Source: an uncultured Planctomycetota bacterium (GTDB lineage Bacteria > Planctomycetota > Phycisphaerae > Tepidisphaerales > Tepidisphaeraceae). Taken from it: a stretch of DNA of 64,000 nt. This document shows, piece after piece, positions 2,749 to 57,186 of this stretch. The stretch spans positions 896,001 through 960,000 of the forward strand of contig CAWJEN010000006.1 of assembly GCA_963841915.1 (NCBI GenBank), read 5' to 3'. The notes below the pieces were generated by a model, which was not told the origin of the DNA, made no database searches, and saw only the letters and a program-made list of their open reading frames with translations. A program made the position numbers and the translations under genes. Numbering within the stretch: the first letter of the stretch is position 1; each line of letters begins with the position of its first letter.

Positions 2749-2880
2749 GCAGGGTTCTATACCGGCCTGCAAGCCGGGTGATCTGAACCCGTGCCACGAC
2801 GCCGGTCTAAGCCCGCGACTGCAATTTTTGTTGCGCGGCGGCGGCCGAATTGGGATCGGGGCGGCGGCAAATGAGCTCAA

Positions 2881-2896
2881 TGTTCCACGTGGAACA
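2881..2896. promoter_or_regulatory. parS: parS centromere site (ParB binding)
   Basis: Perfect 16-bp palindrome TGTTCCACGTGGAACA matching the canonical chromosomal parS consensus. Confidence 0.9.
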
Positions 2897-2954
2897 TCGC
2901 CAACCCTCGCCAGAGGCGCTCAAGACGGTCGGCGGGCTCGGCGAAGGCGCAGAA

Positions 2955-2970
2955 TGTTCCACGTGGAACA
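2955..2970. promoter_or_regulatory. parS: parS centromere site (ParB binding)
   Basis: Perfect palindrome TGTTCCACGTGGAACA. Confidence 0.9.
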
Positions 2971-3120
2971 TTTCGCGATCGAAAAGTGCGTCGGCGGATC
3001 GTCCGCCGTGCGCCGCTTACACGACAAATTTCACAAACGTTTTGCTGGTTTCGACGGCAGTGGGTCGTACAGCTTACGAGGCCGTGCGGTGCTGAAACCG
3101 TTGCGCCGCCGCGGCCGCCT

Positions 3121-4047
3121 TCATGTTGCATCGGCCAGGACGATCCGCGCGTTGCGCTGCCACTGCGGCAGCTTCGTCCGCTTCATCGCGCTGCCACGCA
3201 ACGCCTGGCGATACTGCTCGGGCGACCAGTCGGCCACCGCATTTGCGTCGAGGGTGCCGCTCTGCAGCCCCGGTCGCGGCATCACGTGCTCGTCCGTCGC
3301 AAGCCTCGCCTTGCGGTTCCACGGACACACCTCCTGGCAGATGTCGCACCCGAACAACCACCCGTGCGTCGGCAGCGGAAGCGTGTCGCCGCGGTGCTCG
3401 ATCGTCCAATAGCTGATGCACTTGCGGGCGTCGAGCCGGTAGGGCGTCAGCGCGTCGGTGGGACACGCGTCAAGGCAACGCGTGCACGTTCCGCATCGAT
3501 CAACAGCCGCGGCGTCGGGCGTCAGGTCTGCAGTCGTGAGCACCTCGCCCAGGAGCAGGTAGCTGCCGAGCTTTGTGTCGAGGGCGATGGTGTTCTTGCC
3601 TTGCCAGCCGACGCCTGCCCTGGCGGCCCATTCGCGTTCGAGGACGGGGGCCGTGTCGACGCACACACGTGTCTCGCAGTCCGATTCTTCCCGCAGCCAA
3701 TCGGCCAACGTGTGCAGCCGTCGCTTGATGTGGTCGTGGTAGTCACCGCCCAGCGCGTACCGCGCCACTTTGCCGCGCACGCCCGCCGGCACCGGTTCGA
3801 GCGGCACGTTGTAGCTCAACGCCACCACCACGACGGATCGCGCCCCGGGCAAGTAGTTCTGCACGTCGGCCCGCTCGTCGAACCGATTCTCCAGCCACCG
3901 CATTTCGGCGTGCTGCCCTTCGTCGAGCCACTGCCGCAGAGCCCCGGCCTGCTCCGATGGCTGTGCCGCTGCGACACCGACGGCGTTGAAACCCAGCGCC
4001 CGCGCCCGCTCCTTCGTCGCCTGCGTGAGTCGGAGCTCGGAGATCAT
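3121..4047 (-). CDS. queG: Epoxyqueuosine reductase
   Basis: VARYALGGDYH, DTAPVLEREWA, CGTCTRCLDACPT and GCDICQEVCPWN Fe-S motifs. Confidence 0.95.
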   Translation of the reverse strand: MISELRLTQATKERARALGFNAVGVAAAQPSEQAGALRQWLDEGQHAEMRWLENRFDERADVQNYLPGARSVVVVALSYNVPLEPVPAGVRGKVARYALGGDYHDHIKRRLHTLADWLREESDCETRVCVDTAPVLEREWAARAGVGWQGKNTIALDTKLGSYLLLGEVLTTADLTPDAAAVDRCGTCTRCLDACPTDALTPYRLDARKCISYWTIEHRGDTLPLPTHGWLFGCDICQEVCPWNRKARLATDEHVMPRPGLQSGTLDANAVADWSPEQYRQALRGSAMKRTKLPQWQRNARIVLADAT

Positions 4048-4075
4048 GCCGTCAGACGGTACAGACTTGCTCCAA

Positions 4076-5461
4076 TCAAACCTGATTTTCTGTCCACTTG
4101 CCGCGGTAGAACCGCGAGAACAGCAGCACGCCGCGGACATACAGGTCGATCGCCAGCACACCCCACACCGCCGTCAGCCCGCAATCGAGATACACCACAG
4201 CGACGATGGCCAGCGTCATGCGGATCAGGAACGCACTGCCGAGGTTGCGGACCATCACGGCCGTCGTATCGCCCGCGCCGCGAAGGGCACCGCCGAAAAC
4301 CATCATGGCGGCAAAGCCTAATTGCGACAGGGCGGCAACCCGCAACGCATCACCGGCCGCGGCGGCGACGGCTTCTTCGTTCGTAAACCAGCCGCACAAG
4401 GTCCGCGAGAACATGAAGAACATCAGGCCGCAACCGACCATGAAAACGGCCCCGACGCCAAATGCCAATGTGCCTGCCCGTTTGGCGCGGAGCGGGTTCT
4501 TCATGCCAAGGCTGATGCCGACCATCGTCGCCGCGGCGGTCGAGACGGCAAAGCCGGTCATGTAGCTGAAGGCTTCGACGCGGACCACAATGCCGTGCGC
4601 CGCCGCAGGCACGGTGCCGAGTCTGCCGATGAGCCAGAGGACGACGAAGTTGGCGCCCCAGAAGCTCAAGCCCTCGACGCCGCTGGGGATGCCGATCTTG
4701 AGCAGGCGGCGGATCATCGGAACGTCGGGCCTGAGCCGGTGGGGCAAAAGCCGCAGCTTGCTGGGCCCTTTGCCCCAGAGCAATGCTGCCAGGACGACGA
4801 ACGCGCCGCCGCCGTAGGCGATGGTCGTGCCCCAGGCGATGCCGGTGAAGCCCAGCTGAGGCAGCGGTCCCCAGCCGTAAACGAGGCCGAACGACAGCAG
4901 GACGTTCGTCACGTCGATGACGATCATCGCCAGCATGGGCGTGATCGTGTCACCCGCCCCGCGCAGGCAGGCGTTGCCGATGAAGGTGAAGACGGCCAGC
5001 GGCACACCGATGCCGACAATGCGGGTGAACTGCGTGATGTACGCCTGCGCCTGCGGGTCTTCGAGTCCGAACCAACCACCGGCCGGGCCGGCGAGGGTGA
5101 GCAGCAGCGTGCCAAGCACCACACCCACCGCCGCGGCAAGCAGGAACGATTGACCGACCGCCGCCCGGGCCGTCGAACGGTCGCGGGCGCCGTACGCACG
5201 GCTGATGACAGCCGTCGAGCCCGTGCCGATCGAGCCGGTCATCAGGCCCAGGAACCAGAGCACGTAAGCCGTCGCACCGACGGCGGCACCGGCGGCATTG
5301 TCGAGCTGGTTGGCCAAGTACGTGTCGGTGAGGCCGACGAAGATGTGCAGGAAGTTCTCGGCCGCAATCGGCAGGCCGAGTATGAACAGCCGCTTGAGCA
5401 GGTATGGGTAGCTGCTGTCGTTGGAGACCTGCACCGCGGGTTGAACATCGGCCCGCAGCAT
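4076..5461 (-). CDS. MATE family efflux transporter
   Basis: About 12 hydrophobic segments with duplicated LRGAGDT motifs. Confidence 0.9.
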   Translation of the reverse strand: MLRADVQPAVQVSNDSSYPYLLKRLFILGLPIAAENFLHIFVGLTDTYLANQLDNAAGAAVGATAYVLWFLGLMTGSIGTGSTAVISRAYGARDRSTARAAVGQSFLLAAAVGVVLGTLLLTLAGPAGGWFGLEDPQAQAYITQFTRIVGIGVPLAVFTFIGNACLRGAGDTITPMLAMIVIDVTNVLLSFGLVYGWGPLPQLGFTGIAWGTTIAYGGGAFVVLAALLWGKGPSKLRLLPHRLRPDVPMIRRLLKIGIPSGVEGLSFWGANFVVLWLIGRLGTVPAAAHGIVVRVEAFSYMTGFAVSTAAATMVGISLGMKNPLRAKRAGTLAFGVGAVFMVGCGLMFFMFSRTLCGWFTNEEAVAAAAGDALRVAALSQLGFAAMMVFGGALRGAGDTTAVMVRNLGSAFLIRMTLAIVAVVYLDCGLTAVWGVLAIDLYVRGVLLFSRFYRGKWTENQV

Positions 5462-5530
5462 CGAGGCCCAGCGTAGCGCTCCTGCGACCGGTCATTGTGC
5501 CTACCCGCCACAGGCGGTAGCGTCAGGCCC

Positions 5531-6478
5531 ATGATCGTTTGTCTCGGCACGTCACCCACGTTTCAACGCACAATGGTGTTCGGCACGATTACGGCTGACG
5601 ACGTCAACCGCTCGGACCAGTGTCACGACTTTGCCAGCGGAAAGGCGACCAACGCAGCTCGTGTGCTTCACTCGCTGGGTCGGCCGGCGACGCTTGTCAC
5701 CGTTGCCGGTGGTGATCGAGGGCCATTGTTCCTGGCCGACCTAAATCGCGCGGGCATCGCGGTGCGGGCGGTGCAGGTGACGACACCGACGCGGCTGTGC
5801 GTGACCGTGATTGATCAGGGACGACGGCATTCGACGGAGCTGGTCGAGGAGCCACGCCCGCTCGATGCCGACGTCGCCGACGCACTCGCCGCCGAGCTGG
5901 AAGCGGCTCTTCAAGGAGCCAGGATGCTGGTGTTGTCGGGTAAATTGGCTCCGGGCCTCCCGGACAACTTTCTGGCCCGCGCGGTGCAGGCGGCCAACGA
6001 GCGTGGCGTGCGGTCGGTGCTCGACACGAGGAAAGAGCCGCTGCACGAAGCACTCGAAGCCAGGCCGTTCATCGTCAAGCCCAACCGAAGTGAGCTGGCC
6101 GAAACGGTCGGCCGCAGCGTCGACTCTCGATCGGCCATGCACGATGCGATGGCGATGCTGGTTGATCGCGGCGCGCAACACGTTGTCTGCACCCGCGGCA
6201 GAGACGGCTCGAGCCTGTGCGGGCGCGACGAGGCCGGTGACATCCGCTTCTGGAACGTGTCGACGCCGTCAGTGGAGTCGGTGAGCCCGATCGGGTGCGG
6301 CGACGCCTTTGCGGCCGGGCTTGCCGCTGGACTTCGTGATGGTGCGAGCGTGGTCGAGGCTTGCCGCTTCGCCTCGGCGTGCGGAGCCGCAAATGCCCTG
6401 ACGCCGCACGCCGGACACCTGGACGCCCCGACGGCTCAGGCACTGCTTGAGCAGGTGAAGGTGCGTCAAATCGATTGA
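5531..6478 (+). CDS. PfkB/1-phosphofructokinase-family carbohydrate kinase
   Basis: ASGKATNAARVL, IVKPNRSEL, SPIGCGDAFAAG. Confidence 0.9.
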   Translation: MIVCLGTSPTFQRTMVFGTITADDVNRSDQCHDFASGKATNAARVLHSLGRPATLVTVAGGDRGPLFLADLNRAGIAVRAVQVTTPTRLCVTVIDQGRRHSTELVEEPRPLDADVADALAAELEAALQGARMLVLSGKLAPGLPDNFLARAVQAANERGVRSVLDTRKEPLHEALEARPFIVKPNRSELAETVGRSVDSRSAMHDAMAMLVDRGAQHVVCTRGRDGSSLCGRDEAGDIRFWNVSTPSVESVSPIGCGDAFAAGLAAGLRDGASVVEACRFASACGAANALTPHAGHLDAPTAQALLEQVKVRQID

Positions 6479-6585
6479 AGCCACAAGAAGCTTTGCCTCG
6501 TCAACGCGTGCGATGGCTGGCGTAACGTGACGTCCCGTGGCAGCCGATGCTCGGGAAAGGGATCGCCTGTTCGACCTGAATCCGC

Positions 6586-7203
6586 ATGGCACGCCGTCTG
6601 TTTCGCAAGCTCATGCCGCAGGAACGCTTTGTCAGCGGCAATCCGGTGCTGCGCTTCTTCGGCAAGACGATTCTGAACAAGCGGCTGTGGCACCTCAACC
6701 GCCACAGCGCAGCCGTGGGTGCGGCGAGCGGCGTCTTCTGGGCGTGGATCTGCCTGCCCGTGCAAACCCTCGGTGCCGTGACGACCGCGTGGATCGGTCG
6801 GGGCAACGTGCCGCTGTCGATGGCGTTCACGTGGGTGAGCAACCCGCTCACGTGGCTGCCTTGTTTCTGGCTTGCGTACAAGGTCGGGCTGCCGTTCACG
6901 CCCGCCGAAGAAATTGACATTAAGGCCCTCATCCGCCCGCTCATGGACGGCGAGTGGTCGACGGCCGGTCGGCTGTTCCTGCACGACTTGCCGCAGCTTT
7001 ACCCGATGTACATCGGCGGGACGATCCTGGGCCTCATGACCGGCGGGCTGACCTACGCGGTCGTGAGCCTGATGTGGCGGTGGCACGTCGGTCGCCGCTG
7101 GCGAAAACGGCACAGCCTGTTCGTCAGCGACAAGCCACGGCCTCTATCACGCGGCATCGCCGCCTTGTCGAGGCTGCGCCACCTCAAGCGACCGGCCACC
7201 TGA
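6586..7203 (+). CDS. DUF2062-like membrane protein
   Basis: LWHLNRHSAAVG...TWVSNPLT pattern typical of DUF2062. Confidence 0.75.
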   Translation: MARRLFRKLMPQERFVSGNPVLRFFGKTILNKRLWHLNRHSAAVGAASGVFWAWICLPVQTLGAVTTAWIGRGNVPLSMAFTWVSNPLTWLPCFWLAYKVGLPFTPAEEIDIKALIRPLMDGEWSTAGRLFLHDLPQLYPMYIGGTILGLMTGGLTYAVVSLMWRWHVGRRWRKRHSLFVSDKPRPLSRGIAALSRLRHLKRPAT

Positions 7204-8004
7204 TCAAGCGGCAACGAATCGCGTCTCCAGCGTGCCGATGCCGTTGACGGATGCCCTCGTGACGTCGCCGTCCTTCAGGAACACGGGCGGCATTCGGGCG
7301 GCACCGACGCCGGCCGGGGTGCCTGTCAGAATCACGCTGCCGGCTCGGACCGTCATCGTCTGGCTCAGCGACGACACGATCGTCGGCACGTCGAAGATGA
7401 GCTCACTCGTGCTCGACGCCTGCATGGTCTGGCCGTTGAGTGTCAGCGAGATCGGCAGGTCGCTGACGTCGTCGAGCTCGTCAGCCGTCACGATGGCCGG
7501 GCCGAGCGGGCAGAAGCCGTCGAAGCTCTTGCCACGTGAGAACTGGCCACCGTTGAGACGCTTGTCTTTCTGCCAGTCGCGGGCCGACACGTCGTTGGCG
7601 ATCGTGTAGCCGAAGACGTACTGCATCGCATGACCGACGCTGACGTTTTTCACGTCGCGCCCGATGACGATGACCAGCTCGGCCTCGTAGTCGACCTGCC
7701 CGCTGTTGCCCGGCAACACGACCGCGTCCTTGGGATGACCCAGACTGTTGGAGCTCTTGATGAAGAGCATCGGGTTGTCAGGCGTTGTCGAGTTCGTCTC
7801 GGCTGCGTGGTCGCGATAGTTCAGGCCGATGCAGAGGATGTCCGTCGGCATGATCGGCGCCAGCAGCACGTCGGTTGAAGGCTTGGCGACGCGCGTGCCG
7901 GTCGGCTTTGGATCGAGCGACGTGCCGTCGCAGAGCTCGACGTCCTCGTCATGCTCGATGGCAAGAACGGGGTGGCCGTCGTGGAGGAAGCGGAGGATGC
8001 GCAT
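7204..8004 (-). CDS. Fumarylacetoacetate hydrolase family protein
   Basis: CIGLNYRDHA, VDYEAELV, GYTIANDVSARDWQ, ILTGTPAGVG. Confidence 0.92.
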   Translation of the reverse strand: MRILRFLHDGHPVLAIEHDEDVELCDGTSLDPKPTGTRVAKPSTDVLLAPIMPTDILCIGLNYRDHAAETNSTTPDNPMLFIKSSNSLGHPKDAVVLPGNSGQVDYEAELVIVIGRDVKNVSVGHAMQYVFGYTIANDVSARDWQKDKRLNGGQFSRGKSFDGFCPLGPAIVTADELDDVSDLPISLTLNGQTMQASSTSELIFDVPTIVSSLSQTMTVRAGSVILTGTPAGVGAARMPPVFLKDGDVTRASVNGIGTLETRFVAA

Positions 8005-8036
8005 GCACCTTCTTAGCGTCGCACCAGCAGGTTCGC

Positions 8037-8849
8037 CTACTCGGCCGTCGGCGGCAGGACTTGCGTCGCGCCTTCGGGCTTGTCAAACGACGCCTCGTCT
8101 GCATCGACGAAGCGGAGGTTTGTCAGCACGACCTCGCCGTAGAGGTCAGGGTTGATTCCGTCCTGCTCGTTCCAGAGGTGGAAGGTCCAGTCGGTGCTGA
8201 CGATGACGCCGGTCTTATGGCCGTCGGCGTCGGGCACGTCGATGAAGTTGCTGTAGACGATGGCGTGCGGGTCGGCTTCGGCCTCTTCGACCGTCTTGCC
8301 GTAGGTGACGGTGTAAGCCGCGGCGGCGAGCTGGTTGTTGGTGTTGATGTAGAGCTTGTACCAGTCATCGGGCGAATCCCCGACGCCGCTGTCGAACGTC
8401 AGCTTGCCGCGTCGCATCAATGGCCCGTCGGCGTCGACGTCGAGTTTGGCATCATCCATTAACTCGATACGCGTGCCGCCGTCGTCGAGCTTGAACGGCA
8501 TCATCGCGAAGTAGGGCCACGTGATGAGATGAAACCGCGACCGGGCCAGAGCATCTTCGTCCGTCACCCAAGCCGTCGAGCCGTCGAAGACAGCGACGGT
8601 GCCGTCAACCGTTTCCAGCCGCACCATGCCGACATTGGGCGTCCACCAGAACTTCGCCTCGTCCAGGACCGTGTTACCGCGGAACGTGACGGTGACGTCG
8701 GCATACAGCACCGAATCGGCCGGTATGGCAGCCTTGCCGTGAGCCGCGGCCACATCAGCCGGCAAATCGAGCGACTCGGCGTGCGCCGTAGCGGCCCAGG
8801 CTGCCATGCCATAGGCGATGAAGGCCACGACCGGTGACGAGAAATTCAT
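8037..8849 (-). CDS. Exported hypothetical protein (DUF6503-like)
   Basis: Signal-peptide-like N-terminus. YFAMMPFKL and GVGDSPDDWY motifs recall DUF6503 proteins (from memory, not searched). Confidence 0.6.
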   Translation of the reverse strand: MNFSSPVVAFIAYGMAAWAATAHAESLDLPADVAAAHGKAAIPADSVLYADVTVTFRGNTVLDEAKFWWTPNVGMVRLETVDGTVAVFDGSTAWVTDEDALARSRFHLITWPYFAMMPFKLDDGGTRIELMDDAKLDVDADGPLMRRGKLTFDSGVGDSPDDWYKLYINTNNQLAAAAYTVTYGKTVEEAEADPHAIVYSNFIDVPDADGHKTGVIVSTDWTFHLWNEQDGINPDLYGEVVLTNLRFVDADEASFDKPEGATQVLPPTAE

Positions 8850-8874
8850 GCCACGATCGTAACGCGTTCGACGT

Positions 8875-10344
8875 CTAGCGACGCGACTTCTTCTTGTTGC
8901 GGTCCTTTTTGGCCATGCGGGTCGAGCCTTTGGTCTTGAGCCCGCCACCGGCCTGGGCCATGCCACCGATGCCGCCACCCATGAGGCCGCCGACCATGCT
9001 CCGCATGCGGCCGATCCCGCCGCCGCTCATGGTTTTCGTCAGGCCACGCATCGCCTCGAACTGCTTGAGAAACTGGTTCACGTCGGCCGGTTGTGAGCCC
9101 GAACCGCCTGCCACGCGACGCCGACGGCCGTGCTCGATGATCGCCGGCTTTCTTCGCTCGGCAGGCGTCATCGAGTCGTACATCGCCCGCATGCGGCCCA
9201 TCATGCCTTCCATTTCCGGCCCGGCCATGCTGCTGGCCTTGGCCAGATCACCCATGCCCGGGATCATGCCCATGACCTTGCTCATGCTGCCGAGCTTGCG
9301 GATCTGACCCATTTGGCTCATGAAGTCATCGAGCGTCAGCTCGCCCTTCATCATTTTGTCTTGCTGCCTTTGAAGCTCTTCTTCGTCGAGCTTGTCCTTC
9401 ACCTGCTCGACGAGGCCCATCAGGTCGCCCGCTCCGAGGATGCGTTGGGCCGTGCCTTCGGGGCGGAACTCCTCGAGGCCGTCGAGCTTTTCGCCCGTGC
9501 CGAGGAATTTGACCGGCTTGCCGGTGACATACTTGGCGCTGAGCAACGAGCCGCCGCGGGTGTCGGAGTCGAACTTGGTAAGGATCAAACCGTCGAGCTC
9601 GAGACGTTCATTGAAAGACTTGGCCGTCGCGACCGCGTCCTGGCCGGTCATCGAGTCCAGGACGAGGAAGATCTGGTGCGCCCCGACGGCCTTGTTCACG
9701 TCGGCCAACTCGCTCATGAGCTCATCGTCAATGCTCAGGCGACCGGCCGTGTCGAGGATCAGGATGTCCTTGTTCTGTGCCTTGGCCTCCCTGACCGCCG
9801 CCTTGGCGACGCTGACGGCAGCGCCCTTGCTCACCTTGCCGTGCTCGGCGGCCTTGCTCTTGTCGGCGTACACCGGTACGCCCGCCTGCTCACCGATGAC
9901 GATGAGCTGCTCGATAGCGGCAGGGCGTTGCAAGTCGACCGCTGCGAGCATCGGGTTGTGCCCGCGGCGCGACAGGTACCGCGCCAGCTTGCCGCTCGTC
10001 GTCGTCTTACCGCTGCCCTGCAGACCGGCCATCATGATGATCGTCGGACCGGGCGTGACCGTGTAAATCTTCGCATCCACCGGCCCCAGCAAGCTGACCA
10101 GCTCGTCGTACACGATCTTGACCATCAGGTCGGCCGGCTTTAGCGACGCCGTCACTTCGGCACCAATCGCCTTGTCCGTCACATTCTTCATGAACTCGCG
10201 GACGACCTCCTGATTCACGTCGGCCTCGAGCAAAGCCGTCCGCACCTCGCGCATCGCGTCGCGGACATTCTCCTCGCTGATCTGGCCACGACCTGAGAGG
10301 TGGCGGAGGGCACCTTGAAACTTTTCTGTCAGTCCTTCAAGCAT
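8875..10344 (-). CDS. ffh: Signal recognition particle protein
   Basis: ALLEADV, GLQGSGKTTT, DTAGRL, TKFDSDTRGG and a Met-rich M domain. Confidence 0.97.
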   Translation of the reverse strand: MLEGLTEKFQGALRHLSGRGQISEENVRDAMREVRTALLEADVNQEVVREFMKNVTDKAIGAEVTASLKPADLMVKIVYDELVSLLGPVDAKIYTVTPGPTIIMMAGLQGSGKTTTSGKLARYLSRRGHNPMLAAVDLQRPAAIEQLIVIGEQAGVPVYADKSKAAEHGKVSKGAAVSVAKAAVREAKAQNKDILILDTAGRLSIDDELMSELADVNKAVGAHQIFLVLDSMTGQDAVATAKSFNERLELDGLILTKFDSDTRGGSLLSAKYVTGKPVKFLGTGEKLDGLEEFRPEGTAQRILGAGDLMGLVEQVKDKLDEEELQRQQDKMMKGELTLDDFMSQMGQIRKLGSMSKVMGMIPGMGDLAKASSMAGPEMEGMMGRMRAMYDSMTPAERRKPAIIEHGRRRRVAGGSGSQPADVNQFLKQFEAMRGLTKTMSGGGIGRMRSMVGGLMGGGIGGMAQAGGGLKTKGSTRMAKKDRNKKKSRR

Positions 10345-19455: not shown

Positions 19456-19526
19456 TTACCCCGCAGGGATTCGAACCCCAACTAGCTGTACCAAAAACAG
19501 CTGTGCTACCGTTACACCACGGGGTA
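19456..19526 (-). tRNA. tRNA-Gln(TTG)
   Basis: Minus strand TACCCCG/CGGGGTA acceptor stem, GCTGT-TTTTGGT-ACAGC anticodon arm, GGTTCGAATCC T arm. CCA not encoded. Confidence 0.95.
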
Positions 19527-30105: not shown

Positions 30106-30130
30106 TTCGAGTGTTGCTTATGCGTCGGCA

Positions 30131-30994: not shown

Positions 30995-31157
30995 GGCTTC
31001 GGCAGACAGTCGGCAGTGCCGCCACGAAGGGCATCACGCTCGGCGAGCTGGGCGATGCGGACCGTTCGCTCGACACGCGGTCGACGACGGGTCTGGATCG
31101 CTACTACCACTTCGCCGGCCCCGCGGGTTTGCGTTAGGCGGTCTACGCTCAGGCCAC

Positions 31158-32573
31158 ATGCCAGACAGCGAATCGTCGTTCGACCTCATCGTCATCGGTG
31201 CCGGCCCAGGCGGGTACGTCGCAGCCATTAAGGCGGCACAACTCGGGCTCAAGGTCGCCTGCGTCGAGGCCCAATACCTCGGCGGCACGTGCCTCAACGT
31301 CGGCTGCATCCCGTCGAAAGCCTTGCTCGATTCCAGCGAGCGGTACGCGAACATGACCGAACTTGCCAACCGCGGGATTAGCGTCGAGGGCGTCAAGCTC
31401 GACCTGTCGAAGATGATGGGGTTCAAAGACTCGGTTGTGAAGAAGATGACCGGCGGCATCGGCATGCTGTTCCGAAAGAACAAGATCACTCACCTCCAAG
31501 GCCACGGCAAGCTCGTCAAGGCCGATGCCGGACACGCCGTCGACGTCGCAGGCAAGACCTACACGGCCACGAACGTCATCATCGCCACAGGCTCAACGCC
31601 TGTGCAGATTCCTGGACTCGAATATGACGGCCAGCACATCCTCTCCAGTACCGAGGCCCTCGAGTTGGAGAAGGTCCCGGAGAAACTGCTCATCGTCGGT
31701 GGCGGGTACATCGGCGTCGAGATCGGAAGCGTCTGGTCGCGTCTCGGCAGCGAAGTCACCGTGGTCGAGTTTGCCGACCGCATCCTGCCCGTCAGCGACA
31801 AGGAGATGGCCAACGGCCTGCTCAAGAGCCTCAAGAAGTCAGGGCTGACGTTCCACTTCGAACACGTCGCTAAAAAGGCAGAGGTCAAGAACGGCAAGGT
31901 CGAGGTCACTGTCGAACCCAAGACAGGCGGCGAGGCCAAAGTCTTTATCGTCGATAAGGTCATGGTCGCCGTCGGCCGAAAGCCCAACACGGACAATCTC
32001 GGCCTGGCCGACCTCGGCATCGCGACCGACAAGCGTGGCTTCATCGAAGTCGGTGACGACTTTGCCGTCAAGGGGCAGTCGAACCTCTACGCGATCGGCG
32101 ACGTCATCGGCCGGATCATGCTTGCCCACAATGCCGAGCAGGAAGGCAAAGCCGTCGCCGAGATGCTCGCCAAGGGCGGCTCGCCGCACGTCAATTACCC
32201 CGCTTGCCCGGCAGTGGTCTACACGCACCCGGAGCTGGCCAGCGTCGGGCTGACCCAGGAAGAGGCGACCGAGAAGTTCGGCAAGGACGGCATCAAGATC
32301 GGCAAGTTCCCGCTGCTGGCCAACGGCAGGGCGGTCGGCATGGGCGATTACGAGGGCAGCGTCAAGGTCATCGGCGACGCCAAGACCGACCGGCTGCTGG
32401 GCGTTCACATTCTGGCCCCGCACGCCAGCGACATGATCGGCGAATGCGTGGTCGCCGTCGAATTCGCCAGCAGTGTCGAAGATTTGGCCCGTTGCTTCCA
32501 CGCCCACCCGACGCTCCCGGAGGCCATCAAGGAAGCGGCCATGGCGGCGGACGGTCACGCCATTCATATTTGA
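31158..32573 (+). CDS. lpdA: Dihydrolipoamide dehydrogenase
   Basis: IGAGPGGYVAAIKAAQLG, GGTCLNVGCIPSK, HAHPTLPE. Confidence 0.96.
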   Translation: MPDSESSFDLIVIGAGPGGYVAAIKAAQLGLKVACVEAQYLGGTCLNVGCIPSKALLDSSERYANMTELANRGISVEGVKLDLSKMMGFKDSVVKKMTGGIGMLFRKNKITHLQGHGKLVKADAGHAVDVAGKTYTATNVIIATGSTPVQIPGLEYDGQHILSSTEALELEKVPEKLLIVGGGYIGVEIGSVWSRLGSEVTVVEFADRILPVSDKEMANGLLKSLKKSGLTFHFEHVAKKAEVKNGKVEVTVEPKTGGEAKVFIVDKVMVAVGRKPNTDNLGLADLGIATDKRGFIEVGDDFAVKGQSNLYAIGDVIGRIMLAHNAEQEGKAVAEMLAKGGSPHVNYPACPAVVYTHPELASVGLTQEEATEKFGKDGIKIGKFPLLANGRAVGMGDYEGSVKVIGDAKTDRLLGVHILAPHASDMIGECVVAVEFASSVEDLARCFHAHPTLPEAIKEAAMAADGHAIHI

Positions 32574-32588
32574 AGCACTGAATCTCTC

Positions 32589-32616
32589 TTGCACGGCAAG
32601 GCACGTTTGATAACCT
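32589..32616 (+). promoter_or_regulatory. Putative promoter TTGCAC-N16-TAACCT
   Basis: Same -10 hexamer and spacing as the promoter at 13820-13847. Confidence 0.5.
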
Positions 32617-32671
32617 GCCGACTCCACCGCGCGTACCGCCTGACCAGCGGCACCCACGACTCTGGAGAGAT

Positions 32672-33286
32672 ATGAACCTCAAACTTGCTTCCGCGAGCCT
32701 TCTGCTCGCTGCCATGCCTGCGCTCGGCCAGTTCACGCAATTCGCAGACGAACTCGCCTTCCTTGCCAACGCAGGCGTGGTGACGGTCGAAGACTTTGAC
32801 AGCTTCACGCCCGGTGCCGGTGTGGACAACATCAGCTTCTTCGACTTCGGTGCCTTCACCGCGACGGCCACCAACGGCGCTGAATTCTTGGTCTCCAACA
32901 GTTCGTTCGGAAACGTCAACGGCACGAATTTCATCGACGGCTTCGTCGCCTCGTCGCCTCAATTCCGCGACGTCACCCTCACCTTTGACAGCCCGATCAC
33001 TGCGTTCGGGGCCGACTTCCTCGACCCCGGCAGTGGTGCGGGCCTCGCCTTCGAGGTCGGTGGGGTGACCGCCCTCGACGTCACGCCCCTTGGCACAGGC
33101 AGCGGGTTCGCCGGCTTCACCAGCGACACGCCGTTCACGAGTGTCACGCTTGTCCCCGGCACCGGCACGTCGCCCGGTGAGGTCTTCAGCCTCGACAACC
33201 TGACGGTCGGCGTCGTGCCCGAGCCGACGAGCGTCGCGCTGCTCGGGTTGGCCAGCCTGGCCGGTCTGCGTCGCCGCCGCAACTGA
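32672..33286 (+). CDS. PEP-CTERM surface protein
   Basis: Signal peptide and VPEPTSVALLGLASLAGLRRRRN. Confidence 0.92.
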   Translation: MNLKLASASLLLAAMPALGQFTQFADELAFLANAGVVTVEDFDSFTPGAGVDNISFFDFGAFTATATNGAEFLVSNSSFGNVNGTNFIDGFVASSPQFRDVTLTFDSPITAFGADFLDPGSGAGLAFEVGGVTALDVTPLGTGSGFAGFTSDTPFTSVTLVPGTGTSPGEVFSLDNLTVGVVPEPTSVALLGLASLAGLRRRRN

Positions 33287-33303
33287 ATCAAAGCAACCGT
33301 TTT

Positions 33304-33343
33304 GCGACCCGCAACACAACCGTGTTGCGGGTCGCTTCATTTT
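33304..33343 (+). terminator. Intrinsic terminator
   Basis: GCGACCCGCAACAC / GTGTTGCGGGTCGC 14-bp stem followed by TTCATTTT. Confidence 0.75.
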
Positions 33344-33383
33344 CGGCATGACACATCGCCCGGCGCGTCGATAATCTCTTTAC

Positions 33384-34109
33384 ATGAGCGAGAACGGACA
33401 CAACCAGCCCGAGGGCAACGAGCAAGATCAGGCCACGCAGGACGCCGACACGAAGCCGACGCCCAAAGCCGAGGTGCATCGCAAGGCGTCTGACGAGTCT
33501 TACTCGATGTTCGGCGGTCTGGCGACCGCGCTGCCGTTGCTGCTGAGCATCGGCGGGGCGCTCGTTGCCAGCGCCGCCACGGTGGATCACAACAAGCTCG
33601 ACCGTGACGGTCACGACGACAGCGGCGAAGAGGACGACGACGGTTGGTTCTCGAGCCTGACCGACGTCGGCGGGTCGCTGATCAGCAACGGGGCCAAAGC
33701 TGCGGGTATCGCCGGCGTGCTGCGGGCGATCGGCAGCGGGAACGTGACCGGCGCTGCCGCCTTGGCCGCCAAGGCCATCGCCGCCAAGAAGCTGGCCGAA
33801 TACACCGCTGCAGCAGGCAGCAAATCGGCTCGAGCCGCCGCCCGCCACCCGATCGCCACGCTCGGCAGCACCGCGGCTGCTTATAAAGCCCGCGGCTACG
33901 CACGAACCGGGTACGGCCGCACCCGCGACGCCGCCCGCGTCCTCCGCCACGGCCGCGGATCTGTCGCTCCCCAAAGCAGTGCCGTCGGTGCCGCCTTCAT
34001 GGGCCTGGCATTGCTGAGCGTCGGTGCCGGGTTCGCTTACCTGTTCGACAAACAGCACGGCGAAGACCGCCGCCGCGGCCTCCGGGAATCCGTCGGCCTC
34101 GGCAAGTAG
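33384..34109 (+). CDS. Hypothetical Ala-rich membrane protein
   Basis: Intact ORF. C-terminal GAGFAYLFDKQHGEDRRRGLRE resembles YtxH-like motifs. Confidence 0.6.
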   Translation: MSENGHNQPEGNEQDQATQDADTKPTPKAEVHRKASDESYSMFGGLATALPLLLSIGGALVASAATVDHNKLDRDGHDDSGEEDDDGWFSSLTDVGGSLISNGAKAAGIAGVLRAIGSGNVTGAAALAAKAIAAKKLAEYTAAAGSKSARAAARHPIATLGSTAAAYKARGYARTGYGRTRDAARVLRHGRGSVAPQSSAVGAAFMGLALLSVGAGFAYLFDKQHGEDRRRGLRESVGLGK

Positions 34110-34164
34110 CGTCGCGCCCGACCGATGCTCGAAGCGTCGAATTTCCGTCCACAAGATCACCCCA

Positions 34165-34192
34165 GAGCCGCGGTCCCACGGGACCGCGGCTC
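34165..34192. repeat. 13-bp perfect inverted repeat between convergent genes
   Basis: GAGCCGCGGTCCC-AC-GGGACCGCGGCTC with no clear T tail. Confidence 0.6.
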
Positions 34193-34258
34193 GGGGTCGC
34201 TTCGACGTCAAAAGACCACCGCCTTCACCAAGACCGTAATACGACACCGCAGCCCACT

Positions 34259-35224
34259 TCAACCCGCCTTCGCCCGCTCGGGCGGCTGTGTCTTCCATCG
34301 GCGGTGCAGCCATAGATACTGCCCCGGCTCGCCGCGAACGTTGTTCTCGATCGCCTTCGTGTACCGCTGCGTGATGTAACGAAGCGGATCGTCCGCCGAC
34401 TTCCAGTCGGCGGGGTAAATGACGTCCTGGCAGTCGATGTGGAAGCGGAAGTCGTACCCGAGCCGCCTGCCGAAGCCGACGATGACCGGCACGTCGTAAC
34501 GCATGGCCAGCAGCCCGATCGACTTGTACGTAGAGGCCGGGCGACCGAAGTAGTCGACGAACATGCCCTTCTTACCCGCGTCCTGGTCGGCGGTGAATCC
34601 GACCGCCCCTTTGGCCTCTAGCACCTCGGGCAGCTGGGCCATCGCGCCGATCTTGTCGACGATCTTGTGCCCCTTTTCCTCGCGGACGCCCAGGACATAA
34701 TCGTAGAGATACGGGTTGTTCAGCGGCCGGGCGACGGTGGTCGTGCCGAAGCCCATCGTGGCGAGCATGTAGCCGACGACTTCCCAGTTGCCGTAGTGAC
34801 CGGCAACGAGAATGGCACCTCTGTCCTGTTCGATGAGGTGCCTGAGGGCCTCACCGAGTTTGTCGCCGAGCACGAAGTGCCTGGCGAGCCGATTGAGCTT
34901 GACGTACCGCGGCGTCAGCATGAACTCCACCGCAATGAACGGGAGCAGCCGAAAGCTGTCGCGTGTGACGCGCTTGTAGACCTTCTCCGGCTGGCCGGGG
35001 AAGCTGGCCCGCAGGTTCTCCATCGAGCGGACGCGGTGCCGCTTGTCGACGAGGTAGAGCAAGTCGCCCATGCCTGCGGCCAACGACATGCACGCTTCGA
35101 GCGGGATGCAGTGGAGCAAGGTCGCAAACGCTCGGACGCCGAGATAGACGGCATACTGGGTGGCCTTGCTTTGCGGCTTCTTCTTTCGCTTGCGGCGTTT
35201 TTTTTCGCGAACGGTCTCTGCCAC
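34259..35224 (-). CDS. LpxL/HtrB-family lipid A or lysophospholipid acyltransferase
   Basis: GHYGNWE, ARPLNNP, ADQDAG, VDYFGRPA, PGQYLWLHRRWK. Confidence 0.9.
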   Translation of the reverse strand: MAETVREKKRRKRKKKPQSKATQYAVYLGVRAFATLLHCIPLEACMSLAAGMGDLLYLVDKRHRVRSMENLRASFPGQPEKVYKRVTRDSFRLLPFIAVEFMLTPRYVKLNRLARHFVLGDKLGEALRHLIEQDRGAILVAGHYGNWEVVGYMLATMGFGTTTVARPLNNPYLYDYVLGVREEKGHKIVDKIGAMAQLPEVLEAKGAVGFTADQDAGKKGMFVDYFGRPASTYKSIGLLAMRYDVPVIVGFGRRLGYDFRFHIDCQDVIYPADWKSADDPLRYITQRYTKAIENNVRGEPGQYLWLHRRWKTQPPERAKAG

Positions 35225-35275
35225 GCACGCAGCGTAGCGAGGTGAAGCAACGCGACAGCAATAGGCTCAGCCACC

Positions 35276-35695
35276 GTGGAAGCCGCTCCGGACAACGCAC
35301 GCTTGTCGGCCTTATCGCCGCTGGCCTGGTTGATGACGAGCCGAGGGTTCGCCGGGACCATCGTGGTGACGGTCACTCTTCTGGTTGCCGGGACTCTTCT
35401 GGACCTGCCTTTGTGGCAATGTCCCTTTGCCGCGTTGGGCGGTTCGTGCCCCGGTTGTGGCCTGACGCGGTCGGCGGCACAGTTGGTGCGTGGCGAGGTG
35501 GATGTGTGGAACGTGCATCACGTCACGGTGCTGCTCCTGGTCATGCCGCTTCTGTGCCTGCTCGCCGCCGCGACGATGCCGAGACGTTGGGTGACGACGC
35601 TTACCAGGGGTGTGGCGGCGGTGGAGCGAATGCTCCTTCTCTGGCCAGTGTTGTTTCTATGGCTGACGCTTTACTGGTTGCTAAGCGGCTGGTAG
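35276..35695 (+). CDS. DUF2752-like membrane protein
   Basis: CPFAALGGSCPGCGLTRS motif. Confidence 0.75.
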   Translation: MEAAPDNARLSALSPLAWLMTSRGFAGTIVVTVTLLVAGTLLDLPLWQCPFAALGGSCPGCGLTRSAAQLVRGEVDVWNVHHVTVLLLVMPLLCLLAAATMPRRWVTTLTRGVAAVERMLLLWPVLFLWLTLYWLLSGW

Positions 35696-35707
35696 AACCT
35701 GGGAACT

Positions 35708-35971
35708 ATGGAAACCTTGGGACTCATTCTCTCTGTTGCGGCATTCATTACGTCGCTCGTCTGTTTCATCATTATGGTGATTGAACTATTTAAGGAACAG
35801 GGCATCTTGTTGGGTGTCCTCGGCATCTTGTGTGTGTTGTTCACCTTCATCTGGGGCTGGATCAAGGTGGGCGAGCACGGCAAGAGCACCGTCATGATCG
35901 TGTGGAGCATCGCGATCGGCGTCGGCATGTTGGCGAACGTGTTTGTCGGCGCAGGTGCTTCTGCAGGCTAA
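35708..35971 (+). CDS. Small hypothetical membrane protein
   Basis: 87 aa with three hydrophobic segments. Confidence 0.7.
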   Translation: METLGLILSVAAFITSLVCFIIMVIELFKEQGILLGVLGILCVLFTFIWGWIKVGEHGKSTVMIVWSIAIGVGMLANVFVGAGASAG

Positions 35972-36135
35972 CGACCAATGATGGCCGCAAAGGCGGCCGC
36001 GGCGGCGCAGGTCGTATTCTGCACAAGTTGACTGCAGGGCGGACGCGGAATGACGCCGGAACATCGTAATCGACGGCGGTACCGCCTCGTGTGGCGCACG
36101 ACCCGCCGACGCAGCGGCAACCGTCGGCGGGACGA

Positions 36136-36151
36136 TGTTCCACGTGGAACA
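36136..36151. promoter_or_regulatory. parS: parS centromere site
   Basis: TGTTCCACGTGGAACA. Confidence 0.9.
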
Positions 36152-36203
36152 GACCGGGGCGGCGCGACGAACGTACGTGGCCGCTCGTGGCGAGGGTTTG
36201 CAA

Positions 36204-36219
36204 TGTTCCACGTGGAACA
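36204..36219. promoter_or_regulatory. parS: parS centromere site
   Basis: TGTTCCACGTGGAACA. Confidence 0.9.
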
Positions 36220-36397
36220 TTCGCCGAGTCGCCGACCCCGATGGCCGCCGCGGCGCAGCGCCTGGCGTCGTTTTTGCAACTTTGTCGGCCTCGCAAGGTG
36301 TCTGGCATGTCTGCAACGGTTTCTAACGTTGTCGGACCCGCGCCCCGGCCCGTACCGTGGCCCCGGCTGGTGGCGTAAGTCACCTGCCCTTACACAC

Positions 36398-38248
36398 ATG
36401 ACACGCAGCATCCCCTCGATGAACACACTCCTTAATTCTCGCATGACCGGTACCCGACGCATCGCCACCGCCGCTTCAGCCGCGGTCGCAGTCGTCTTCG
36501 GCGCGCTCGCCACCAACGCCAACGCCGACGTCGCCGAGGCCATCCCGAGCGACGCGCTCTTCGCCATCAAGATCAACGACATCCAGTCCGTCTCAGACGA
36601 CTGGGGCGCGTTGGCCAAGGAGTGGGGCCTTGACCAGATGGAGCCGGGCATGGCCGATCCCATCGCGGCGATAAAGGGAGAAACTGGCATGGGCGAGGGC
36701 ATCGATTTCGACGGCGAAATGGGCATCTACGCACCGGCCGGCGCTGATTTCGACGGCGACGAGCCGCCACTCGTCGTGCTCGTGCCCGTCAGCGACTACG
36801 ACGCGTTCCTCGACAGCTTCGAAGACCGTCGTAAGGAAGGCGATTACGACCTCGTCACCAGCCCCGAAGGTGAAGACGTCTACGCCAAGAAGGTCGGCGA
36901 CTACGCCGCCATGACCCCGATGATGGACCTGCTCGGCATGGGCGGAGAACTCGGCCTGAAGATGGACGGCCCCAGCGGCGACCAGTTTGATGAGCAGGAC
37001 ATCACCCTTTACGCCAACTTCGTCAGCCTTGCTCCGATCCTGAACAAGGCGATCGAAGAGAACGGCGGCAAGGAGAAGATGATCGAGGAGCTCGAAAAGG
37101 CGTTCGAGAGCGGTGACGTTCCCGAGGGCTTCAAGCAGTACCAGCCCGTCGCCAAGGCCGCCGCCGGTCAGGCGTACATGGTGCTCGAGAGCTTCCTGCG
37201 TGACGCCAAAGCCGCCACGGTCAGCGTCGACTTCAACCCTGAGGCCGGCATCGCCGGCAGCGTTGTCGCTCACTTCAACGAGGGCAGCTACCTCGGCGAC
37301 GTCATGGGCAACCTCAAGACCAGCGATGGCTCGCTCCTGAGCGGCCTGCCCGAGGGCAACTACCTGTTCTTCGGCGGCAGCGCTGCCGATCCTGAGCAGT
37401 CGACGAAGCTGTTCACCGACCTCGCCGGCCCCGTCCTCGAAGAGCTGCAGGGCCTCGACGGCGAGGTTTCAGAGCTCGTCGGCGAGCTGGTCTCGTCGGT
37501 CGAGAAGGCCCTTGGTGCTACCGAGAGTGCCCGCTTCGGCCTGTTCGCACCTGACGTCAGTCGCATTGGTCAGGCCCCGCTGCTCCAGCAGGTCCAGATC
37601 ACCAGCGGCGACCCGGAACTGCTGATGGACGTCGCCCGCAAGGGTGCCGAGATCAGCCCGAAGCTCATGCAAGCCATTGCCGCCCAGGCTGGTGAGGCAG
37701 ACGCCCCTGACGTCGGCGTGAAATTCGAAGAGAACGCCAAGGAAGTCGCCGGTGTCACGTTCACCAAGTCGACCACCGAGCTTCCGCAGAACGACGCGAC
37801 GCAGGCCCTCATCACGAACCTGTTCTTCGGCCCCGAAGGTCAGACCGCTTACCTCGGCACCGTCGAGGACAGCTTCCTGTCGGTCAGCGGCCTGAGCGAT
37901 GACCAGATCGCCAGCGTTGTCGAAGCCATCAAGGCCGACGCGTCACCGCTGACGGAGAAGAACGGCATGGAACTGATGGCAGACAACCTGCCCGAGGATC
38001 GGTCGATGGTTGTCTTCTGGGACGTCGGCGAGACGGCCCGTGCCGGCCTCGGCGCGCTGCAGGCGTTCGGCCAAGCTCCGCCGATCCAGATCCCGCAGAA
38101 CCTGCCCCCGATCGGCATCGCCGCCGGTCCGGCTGAGGACTCGCTCATGATCGGCGTTCTGGTTCCCAAGGACCTCGTCAGCGCCGCCATCGTGACCACC
38201 ATGCAGCTCCAGGGCGGCATGGGTGGCCCGCCGAACCAAGGCCTCTAA
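36398..38248 (+). CDS. Exported hypothetical protein (~616 aa, acidic)
   Basis: Signal peptide ending ANA-DV, followed by IPSDALF. Strongly biased codon usage. The ORF-track 5' extension runs through the parS cassette and was trimmed. Confidence 0.8.
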   Translation: MTRSIPSMNTLLNSRMTGTRRIATAASAAVAVVFGALATNANADVAEAIPSDALFAIKINDIQSVSDDWGALAKEWGLDQMEPGMADPIAAIKGETGMGEGIDFDGEMGIYAPAGADFDGDEPPLVVLVPVSDYDAFLDSFEDRRKEGDYDLVTSPEGEDVYAKKVGDYAAMTPMMDLLGMGGELGLKMDGPSGDQFDEQDITLYANFVSLAPILNKAIEENGGKEKMIEELEKAFESGDVPEGFKQYQPVAKAAAGQAYMVLESFLRDAKAATVSVDFNPEAGIAGSVVAHFNEGSYLGDVMGNLKTSDGSLLSGLPEGNYLFFGGSAADPEQSTKLFTDLAGPVLEELQGLDGEVSELVGELVSSVEKALGATESARFGLFAPDVSRIGQAPLLQQVQITSGDPELLMDVARKGAEISPKLMQAIAAQAGEADAPDVGVKFEENAKEVAGVTFTKSTTELPQNDATQALITNLFFGPEGQTAYLGTVEDSFLSVSGLSDDQIASVVEAIKADASPLTEKNGMELMADNLPEDRSMVVFWDVGETARAGLGALQAFGQAPPIQIPQNLPPIGIAAGPAEDSLMIGVLVPKDLVSAAIVTTMQLQGGMGGPPNQGL

Positions 38249-55312: not shown

Positions 55313-55394
55313 GGGAGTGTACCGAAGTGGACAAACGGGTCTGACTGTAAATCAGATGGCTACGCCTTCGGGGGTTCGAATCCCTCCGCTCCCA
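55313..55394 (+). tRNA. tRNA-Tyr(GTA)
   Basis: GGGAGTG/CGCTCCC acceptor stem, TCTGA-CTGTAAA-TCAGA anticodon arm, long variable arm, GGTTCGAATCC. Upstream TTGCCG-N16-TATAGT promoter. Confidence 0.96.
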
Positions 55395-55403: not shown

Positions 55404-55429
55404 AAAGCCCCGCACTTTGCGGGGCTTTT
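55404..55429. terminator. Bidirectional terminator
   Basis: AAAGCCCCGCA-CTT-TGCGGGGCTTTT. Confidence 0.85.
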
Positions 55430-55436
55430 GCTTGGG

Positions 55437-56162: not shown

Positions 56163-56186
56163 GGCCGGCACTGTACTGCGGTTGAC

Positions 56187-56888
56187 TCAGGAGGCGATGT
56201 ACTGCTCGTGGTGCGAGAGGTCGCCGCGGGCACGCGCCTCGAGCTGACGCATCCGGTCGTCCACCCGACGGGCGACTTCGAGTTGACGGTCCAGCGTCGT
56301 CGATAGCTCACCGAGCGAGCGGCTGCGGTCCACCGACTTGGCCATGGCGGCGGCGGTCAGCACACGATCGACGCCTGCCTCCAGTGCGTCTGCCGCCGGT
56401 CCGGCATCGAGCACGAGCGTGTCCCGCTCCTGATAAATCGTCTCGCGGGCCGAGTCGGTCGCAAGCTCCCGGGCGGCCAGCGTCAGGTCGAACGCGTCCT
56501 GCAGCGACGAGGCAGTCGTGTCGAAGAGCTCGCGAAGCTTGTGCCCCAGCTCCTGCGGATCATCAATGGGCACCCGATCGAGCTTCGGCCGCAGCTTACC
56601 GAGTCGGTCGACAAGGCTCGCAATGACGAACGCCCCTTTGACCTTGGCCCGCATCTCCAGATCGTCGAGGTCGCGCTGCCGAAACCGAGTCGCCGGACCT
56701 GCCGCGGGTGCTGCCGTTGCCTGCTGCCGGACGCTCATGCCGAAGAGCGTGCCCACACCCGCACCAATCGCAAGGCAACCGGCCGCCACGGGTATCAGCC
56801 AAGAGAACGCCAAGCCTCCGACCGCGACGGCAACGCCACCCACCACCAGAAAGCCACTGGCTATGCGCGTGCTGGTTGAGGTCGGCAT
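56187..56888 (-). CDS. Hypothetical membrane-anchored coiled-coil protein
   Basis: Two N-terminal TM segments followed by a helical region. The ORF-track 5' extension through the parS cassette was trimmed. Confidence 0.7.
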   Translation of the reverse strand: MPTSTSTRIASGFLVVGGVAVAVGGLAFSWLIPVAAGCLAIGAGVGTLFGMSVRQQATAAPAAGPATRFRQRDLDDLEMRAKVKGAFVIASLVDRLGKLRPKLDRVPIDDPQELGHKLRELFDTTASSLQDAFDLTLAARELATDSARETIYQERDTLVLDAGPAADALEAGVDRVLTAAAMAKSVDRSRSLGELSTTLDRQLEVARRVDDRMRQLEARARGDLSHHEQYIAS

Positions 56889-56939
56889 GACCGACTTTAG
56901 CGCTGCGCCGCGGCGGCCACGCGGGTCGGCGAATGCGAA

Positions 56940-56955
56940 TGTTCCACGTGGAACA
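56940..56955. promoter_or_regulatory. parS: parS centromere site
   Basis: TGTTCCACGTGGAACA. The palindrome extends to 26 bp (56935-56960). Confidence 0.9.
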
Positions 56956-57015
56956 TTCGCCGCGAGGGCAAATCGTCGATGGGCGGTCGTGGCGAGGGTG
57001 CGAGAACCTTCAGAC

Positions 57016-57031
57016 TGTTCCACGTGGAACA
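57016..57031. promoter_or_regulatory. parS: parS centromere site
   Basis: TGTTCCACGTGGAACA. Confidence 0.9.
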
Positions 57032-57186
57032 ATTTCGCGTCTTCGACTGCGTCGGCGGGTCGTCGGCCGTCCGTGATGGTGTGGTAGCTGGTGCGCACAG
57101 GATTACGAAGAAAGGGCGCGGCGGGTCGTCGCTACTGCGGGTCTTTGCTGCACGAAACCACCTGCGCCGCCGCGGCCGCCGCGGCG

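Follow-up and report, generated by a model that had tools for sequence, protein, structure and literature searches.

Oriented parS cassettes across a Tepidisphaeraceae chromosome as candidate packaging start sites of a gene transfer agent

A 64,000-nucleotide stretch of DNA (the window) from an uncultured planctomycete of the family Tepidisphaeraceae (GenBank assembly GCA_963841915.1, contig CAWJEN010000006.1, positions 896,001 to 960,000 of the forward strand) carries three copies of a composite cassette in which a pair of parS palindromes, the type of site associated with the partition protein ParB, is framed by conserved boxes termed L, M and R. In the genome to which the window belongs (G000; 3.63 Mb, 93.8% complete), 64 oriented cassettes of about 300 bp were found, 30 on the plus and 34 on the minus strand, and the cassette is a real, selected and genus-wide element. 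These cassettes are probably, with a confidence modestly above even, directional headful packaging start (pac-like) sites of a gene transfer agent (GTA) with ParB as a co-factor. A more specific proposal, given slightly under an even chance, is that the GTA has recruited the host centromere protein, such that ParB-parS and terminase boxes together form programmable one-way start sites that tile the chromosome by driving their own transfer, writing a head size of about 7.2 kb into base composition.

An earlier note on the window had described six perfect TGTTCCACGTGGAACA palindromes in three pairs (at 2881/2955, 36136/36204 and 56940/57016, with spacings of 74, 68 and 76 bp), accompanied by boxes L, M and R at near-constant gaps (parS to M, 16, 22 and 16 nt; M to R, 99, 88 and 99 nt), with box R identical at 18 of 18 positions in the three copies, and all of these observations were reproduced. 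Under a fifth-order Markov model of the genome, the window would be expected to contain 9e-5 copies of the 16-mer, 1.4e-4 of R, 1e-3 of M and 3e-3 of L. Two features were absent from that description: the second copy lies on the minus strand, inverted relative to the first and third, and a seventh parS, with one mismatch, is found at 2384 within miaA.

The genome-wide distribution was established with a profile built from 55 oriented copies, which recovered 61 cassettes at 100 bits or more, and three partial cassettes (C3:145 kb, C6:60 kb and the parB locus) were added by hand. All five named parts are present in 50 of the 64 cassettes, and the genome contains 121 perfect parS 16-mers. The 59 inter-cassette gaps average 54 kb with a coefficient of variation of 0.52, compared with 0.94 for random intergenic placement; none of 5000 random placements was as even, and a single gap below 18 kb was observed where 16.5 were expected. 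Gaps flanked by facing R ends (mean 76.6 kb, n=14) are wider than those flanked by facing L ends (42.3 kb, n=18; p=0.0012), which indicates that a cassette occupies a larger territory toward R than toward L. The skew switch at dnaA, likely the replication origin, lies at C6:371 kb, with the nearest cassette 31.6 kb off, and parB (C5:833 kb), parA (C1:89 kb) and dnaA are mutually unlinked. The earlier interpretation as an origin-type centromere is thus contradicted by 64 evenly spread copies in both orientations, none within 31 kb of dnaA. The notion that the boxes are generic GC-rich repeats, offered in the earlier note as a possible refutation, does not hold either, since an L/R weight matrix gives 134 matches within cassettes and 17 outside them across the genome.

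An orientation bias by replichore was considered and rejected: on C6, 20 cassettes are co-directional with replication and 12 opposite, and both classes show the compositional ripple described below. In a post hoc comparison, all six cassettes left of dnaA (C6:60-340 kb) point away from it, and the right arm is unbiased. Away from dnaA, G000 shows only a weak, irregular replichore skew; another dnaA-like gene is found at C6:510 kb, and 6 kb from dnaA there is a ParA-like gene. Lone L/R or M boxes without parS, some of them intergenic, occur at C5:615755, 679575, 133396 and 895358, C4:19910 and C5:1030800, and also in the congener G004; these are possibly nascent or decayed cassettes.

The anatomy of the cassette is that of a helically phased unit. 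Boxes L and R are one motif, GCG(C/T)TGCGC-N3-GGCGGCC, in direct orientation, and an additional dyad, box S, lies between the two parS sites. The distance from L to parS-1 falls into classes of 38-40, 47-49 and 56-58 bp; that from parS-1 to M measures 99-102 (15 copies), 109-111 (31) or 120 bp (2), with 130 and 91 bp also recorded; and that from M to R is 101-103 (16) or 110-113 bp (37), with 104-109 bp in 0 of 53. Box spacings therefore shift in whole helical turns, in steps of about 10 bp, a pattern that would fit a protein complex bound along a single face of the double helix and that argues for double-stranded DNA rather than a structured noncoding RNA. The proposal of the earlier note that the multi-box unit recruits a second factor is accordingly supported: a helically phased platform makes the binding of such a factor likely, as judged from the arrangement of the boxes, and the candidates for it lie in a phage-derived packaging regulon.

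That regulon is indicated by the occurrence of the same box ahead of packaging genes. The portal and SU10-type capsid genes of G000 lie at C5:841-845 kb and terS-terL at C6:1187-1189 kb, with TerL, portal and capsid intact, and a further operon at C5:587-588 kb encodes a lipoprotein, a phrog_1128 protein and a weakly holin-like protein. Two of the 17 weight-matrix matches outside cassettes stand before terS and the holin-like operon; the other 15 could not be tied to phage genes. In G000 the box ends 13 nt ahead of the terS start, and a reversed L box is located upstream of terS in all four genus genomes with sequence there (G000, G001, G003 and G004; the locus of G002 is too short). The same reversed box precedes the portal gene in G001, G003 and G004, the copy in G000 being degenerate, and it precedes the holin-like operon in G000, G003 and G004. 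Outside the genus, 25 terS loci gave only scattered matches with two mismatches.

The head-packaging genes are single copy across the host clade and lie in scattered operons. Of 141 family genomes, 94 have a TerL relative (a weak one in 9 cases, including G006); the SU10 capsid is present in 24 of 40 genomes of the family and in all four congeners (in two pieces in G002), and IMG/VR contains one distant TerL relative, at 30%. Complete genomes of the family include carriers of the head genes (G052, G088) as well as non-carriers (G021, G053). The genes flanking the head genes are host genes, with no replicating-prophage context, and no search aimed at integrases was made. On their distribution, the packaging genes appear to follow the pattern of a domesticated system. 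A structural model of TerS, which is encoded at C6:1187181-1187699, (mean pLDDT 69) shows an N-terminal helix-turn-helix (HTH) and long helices, with L, W and F residues conserved across six orthologs; its top PDB matches are Sf6 TerS, below significance (Foldseek E 0.13). A prediction of a ParB-TerS complex, run without folded controls, scored 0.00 and carries no verdict. ComEC and MutS are encoded in all five genus genomes. Upstream of terS (G000:C6:1184.7-1187.7 kb), family-conserved genes encode a sigma-70 region-4-like HTH protein (at about C6:1184860-1185348), a P-loop ATPase, a zinc-ribbon protein and a GNAT protein, which possibly include an activator and a DNA-modifying pair. DNA-modifying pairs have been linked to ParB and terminase, a link that the literature search did not return.

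A one-sided trace in base composition extends from the cassettes. It was obtained as codon-context-corrected G/C skew at four-fold degenerate sites, averaged over cassettes, from parS-1 toward R, and it takes the form of a ripple that goes from -0.19 over 0-1 kb to +0.13 over 3-4.5 kb, back to -0.05 over 7-8 kb and up to +0.07 over 10.5-11 kb, with weakly positive values over 16.5-17.5 kb. Relative to random anchors, the z values along the series are -8.7, +8.7, -2.0, +3.7, -0.7 and +1.8, and successive contrasts within individual cassettes hold in 61 of 63 (peak 1 above trough 0), 51 of 63, 47 of 62, 47 of 61 (peak 2 above trough 2) and 37 of 59. The ripple is seen with genes of either strand, with cassettes of either strand and in each half of the contigs. 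A damped cosine gives a period of 7.2-7.5 kb, or 6.5 kb when the first wave is left out, and the amplitude decays over about 6 kb. Additionally, synonymous GC content (GC4) shows a residual of +0.026 at 0-5 kb that declines to about zero by 20 kb, on the R side only. In G004, 20 cassettes examined with windows fixed beforehand show the same phase (-0.28, +0.13, -0.11, +0.08, then -0.05 to -0.09). The ripple is phased by the cassette and not by the satellite parS sites described below, as the best shift is 0. An anchor-free autocorrelation of 400 kb of G001 against seven G000 segments was noisy in both.

A fading series of fixed length that starts from an oriented site is the signature of headful packaging; here, the one-directional fading series of fixed size is seen indirectly, as a compositional ripple. 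A period of about 7 kb fits the size of a T=3 GTA head, for which about 8.5 kb is given for Faecalibacterium in the accessible part of the preprint (bioRxiv 10.1101/2024.11.15.623857). A C:C versus G:G bias of mismatch repair was evaluated as a cause of the ripple and found not to be diagnostic, since replication skew has the same signature and two-fold sites shift too; evasion of repair by C-C mismatches is in print, according to the part of the source available (PMC3167615).

The same trace bears on an improbable alternative, in which the cassettes are origins of directional chromosome transfer or of local replication or recombination without capsids (oriT-like, or comparable to the run-off replication of the Bartonella GTA), with ParB as a marker. 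It is in keeping with this alternative that the GC ramp is one-sided and that the negative-to-positive switch, some 2 kb toward R, shares its G/C-only signature with the switch at dnaA. However, an origin yields one switch and not repeats every 7 kb or so on one side; the exact 9-mer DnaA box occurs twice genome-wide, in neither case within a cassette; the cassettes are GC-rich; and the box is tied to packaging genes.

The involvement of ParB is indicated by co-variation. The canonical parS occurs at 0-2 sites in the four congeners (G001-G004). In G004, at least 20 cassettes of the same layout carry CGCTCCRCGTGGAGCG, which is also found around parB, with pairs mostly 64 or 74 bp apart; in G003, about seven cassettes of another layout carry CGCACCRCGTGGTGCG, again also present at parB. 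The layout in G003 consists of box L, a spacer of about 180 bp and two abutting parS-like palindromes, and its cassettes show an origin-like skew switch at the site (six loci, noisy). The ParB recognition helix differs among G000, G003 and G004 along with the parS variant. The earlier assumption that the palindromes are ParB sites is likely to hold, since in these three genomes the cassettes carry whichever variant surrounds parB. G002 is discordant, with canonical sites at a frameshifted parB and one G004-type cassette. ParB of G000 retains the CTPase motif (GERRLRA and LGRGL), ParA and SMC are encoded, which led to rejection of a loss of ParA, and a single ParB_N match was found in this genome at its 93.8% completeness. 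Three further long open reading frames with weak ParB-HTH matches occur in G004. No FtsZ was found by a signature-motif search of the G000 gene calls.

Beyond the cassettes, G000 contains 53 parS cores, of which 46 lie 0.3-3.3 kb toward the L side; 21 of these 46 satellites fall within called genes, in all three frames. Excluding the parB locus leaves 44 satellites on the L side and none on the R side; those of G004, too, are on the L side. The parB locus itself (G000:C5:832770-834360) has a partial cassette and four R-side parS sites; the capsid-portal operon follows 9-12 kb away toward R, inside what would be the second headful of this cassette.

These data lend some plausibility to the main rival explanation, which is nevertheless judged unlikely: a chromosome-wide ParB/SMC lattice, in which the cassettes load ParB and condensin one way, defining units of about 54 kb for a condensed nucleoid or for segregation, and the boxes serve as roadblocks bound by a host regulator that also controls phage-derived operons. 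The even spacing, the satellites, the co-variation of parS, the retained CTPase motif and the presence of ParA and SMC are all compatible with it, and roadblocks can halt ParB sliding in one direction, as described in the available portion of PMC7333895. Dispersed parS sites also occur in other genera of the family (66 in G093, 42 in G156, 39 in G096, where the variant is TGTGCCACGTGGCACA, and 29 in G066) as small clusters over many contigs, which in G093 and G066 are without the boxes, and each of these four genomes has a TerL match. An orientation-free skew contrast amounts to +0.118 +/- 0.018 in G000 (54 of 63 positive), to -0.044 +/- 0.029 in G093 (6 of 16) and to -0.166 +/- 0.046 in G066 (1 of 7), the last of opposite sign, so dispersed parS alone does not produce the G000 skew pattern. 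The lattice explanation leaves unaccounted for the strand-asymmetric, damped 7-kb ripple and the one-sided GC ramp, replicated in two species, the rare non-cassette boxes before terS, portal and the holin-like operon, and the range of cassette counts, from 0 to 64, within one genus.

The conservation of individual sites was also considered. At 7 of 27 congener loci, an ortholog of a flanking gene lies within 1.5 kb of a G000 cassette, which indicates that sites turn over; two of the loci agree with their G000 counterparts in side, distance and strand, and one of these corresponds to window copy 1, ahead of miaA. Box-lattice matches among the 141 family genomes number 46, 18, 7, 1 and 1 within the genus and at most 1 elsewhere. 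A scan for box L with a parS core returned at least 82 stretches in a genome collection and 107 in a metagenome collection; 12 full cassettes were found among 160 stretches scored, all from one Tepidisphaerales genome. The intergenic, dispersed placement in both orientations, the differing sites between congeners and the semi-palindromic box R could be taken to suggest an old non-autonomous mobile element (MITE- or REPIN-like) that carries parS and spreads selfishly. Such an origin has very little probability and is disfavoured, as there are no young copies (the 55 aligned copies are old and star-like, with pairwise identity averaging 53% and reaching at most 63%) and no excess of target-site duplications (9 versus 7.7 in shuffled sequence). 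Moreover, spacers change by whole helical turns, satellites lie inside genes in three frames, and effects extend to 20 kb.

Under the packaging interpretation, boxes L and R would be bound by the HTH-bearing small terminase or by the sigma-like HTH protein of the regulon, which would also control the packaging operons, and ParB, as a co-factor, would likely occupy both parS sites. Once loaded there, ParB may be blocked on the R side and spread to the L side, with satellites extending its domain; one-way blocking by a roadblock would fit the L-side satellites, where the first cut would fall. TerL is proposed to cut no more than about 1.5 kb from parS-1, toward L, and to fill headfuls of about 7.2 kb rightward for approximately three rounds, giving fragments that run from about -0.7 to +6.5 kb, from there to about +13.5 kb, and onward; three headfuls per cassette would cover 37% of the genome and five would cover 56%. 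If recipients recombine these fragments into their chromosomes, the expected traces are strand-asymmetric ends, seen as the ripple, and GC-biased conversion, seen as the GC ramp, and the C-poor strand would end 3' at each fragment end, which would fit resected single-stranded ends exposed in recombination. The start sites may spread with their own transfer, which would explain their upkeep, turnover and spacing. The role of ParB is the least certain step of this mechanism.

Several points weigh against packaging. No particle, cut site or binding has been observed. The assignment of TerS is weak (PHROG E 7e-4, Foldseek E 0.13), and among 2236 candidates only TerS itself was recovered at E<=1e-3. 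Tail, adaptor or stopper genes were not found near the head genes (a whole-proteome tail scan was not made), and the post-capsid genes of three family clusters lack a clear G000 ortholog. Known GTAs have no pac motifs and a TerS without a DNA-binding domain, as far as the available portions of PMC11841831 and PMC5786225 describe them. With regard to the ripple, the G000 windows were picked after the profile had been viewed, the bootstrap range of the period is 7.0-10.1 kb, the third cycle is marginal (z +1.8, 37 of 59), and the L side, otherwise flat, has one unexplained bump at -6.5 to -8.5 kb (z +2.6). Its G/C-only signature is shared with replication skew and alone does not point to recombination. 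Within the genus, G001 (80% complete) has head genes and boxes, and no cassettes were found in it. The parS clusters of G093 and G066 lack both the L/M/R boxes and a skew switch of the G000 type; parS dispersal in the family can thus exist apart from the cassette and may have a chromosome role of its own, which keeps the ParB/SMC explanation alive.

In the window, cassette 1 (plus strand) consists of box L at 2832..2846, with the motif shared by R and by the box before terS, portal and the holin-like operon, parS-1 at 2881..2896, a box S half-site at 2903..2912 on the plus strand (part of the dyad ACCCTCGCCA..TGGCGAGGGT, missed in the earlier note), parS-2 at 2955..2970, box M at 2987..3002 and box R at 3102..3119. 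The one-mismatch satellite in miaA (2384..2399) lies 0.5 kb on its L side, and its first packaging unit of about 7.2 kb would span approximately 2200..9400 on the plus strand. Its own skew in the first four zones (-0.11, +0.13, -0.12, +0.08) matches the average ripple. Cassette 2 (minus strand) comprises box R at 35992..36009, box M at 36098..36113, parS-2 at 36136..36151, a minus-strand box S half-site at 36188..36197, parS-1 at 36204..36219 and an extended 19-mer box L at 36243..36261, with a putative first unit at 29700..36900; it departs from the average ripple, with a skew of +0.22 in the first zone. Cassette 3 (plus strand) comprises an extended 19-mer box L at 56900..56918, parS-1 at 56940..56955, a box S half-site on the minus strand at 56990..56999, parS-2 at 57016..57031, box M at 57048..57063 and box R at 57163..57180, with a putative first unit at 56200..63400; it follows the average ripple in three zones (-0.14, +0.20, -0.24) and departs in the fourth (-0.15). 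Box R of this cassette stands right behind the stop codon of the C-terminal frame of cmk (57187-57390, minus strand), which is seen only as a 67-amino-acid C-terminal frame, possibly through an assembly indel; purH and argH likewise look split elsewhere in the genome (G000:C5:831-833 kb and 840-841 kb), possibly for the same reason. An Rfam scan of the window returned two tRNAs only, tRNA-Gln (19456-19526, minus strand) and tRNA-Tyr (55313-55394, plus strand), and no curated noncoding RNA family at the cassettes.

How GTAs choose where packing starts is an open question, with chromosome architecture merely suspected in the accessible literature. If the packaging interpretation is correct, the 64 cassettes would be defined, oriented start sites for which fragment size, left ends, direction and helical phase can be predicted exactly, ParB would have a role outside segregation, horizontal transfer would shape chromosome layout and local base composition, and the recombination map of an uncultured bacterium would be readable from its genome. 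The findings also suggest a GTA family across Tepidisphaerales, and skew ripples could serve to detect GTAs, and to read off their head size, in lineages without cultures. Within a literature search that left most subscription papers and supplements outside its reach, no report of this system was found, nor, for the case that the ParB/SMC explanation applies, of a chromosome-wide oriented parS lattice.

Among known systems, Noc and its NBS sites, which mediate nucleoid occlusion in Bacillus, provide an example of a ParB-family protein acting on palindromes dispersed over the chromosome, whereas here a single chromosomal ParB is present, no separate paralog was matched in G000, and the sites are oriented composite units. 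The ParABS centromere shares with this system a 16-bp parS-type palindrome that is also clustered around a single parB, the CTPase motif, ParA and SMC. Chromosomal parS sites are origin-proximal and number up to 20-23 according to the part of PMC7333895 available, whereas 121 perfect sites are found here, evenly spread and not near the origin, paired in an oriented five-box unit with one-sided satellites, and with parA, parB and dnaA unlinked.

Similarities to GTAs (RcGTA, DsGTA, CcGTA, BaGTA and the Faecalibacterium GTA), as given in the accessible portions of the sources (PMC11841831, PMC5786225, PMC7947584, bioRxiv 10.1101/2024.11.15.623857), include conserved single-copy terminase, portal and capsid genes over several operons, a small headful (4-9 kb) and host ComEC; regularly spaced packaging peaks are described for DsGTA, where they are symmetric and motif-free (PMC11841831, PMC5786225). 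In those portions, ParB is mentioned merely as a possible obstacle. The present system differs in its predicted TerS HTH, strong site motifs, one-sided footprint and SU10-type capsid, with no tail found near the head genes. For phage P22 in Salmonella, the available part of PMC11260489 describes a fading headful series from host pac-like sites, and this lateral transduction resembles the present case in its conserved oriented chromosomal sites and in a fading series whose period equals one headful; nine short sites, an infectious phage and 43-kb heads there contrast with 64 composite parS units of about 300 bp in what appears to be a host-resident, non-replicating system. In the pac region of SPP1/SF6, direct-repeat boxes also span the terS start and TerS binding represses its own operon, but there is one site on the phage genome, without ParB sites, in the portion of PMC4737164 available. 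The system described here works like a pac-type GTA but lacks the nonspecific packaging of known GTAs, and uses parS but lacks the origin placement of a centromere; it is accordingly filed under neither.

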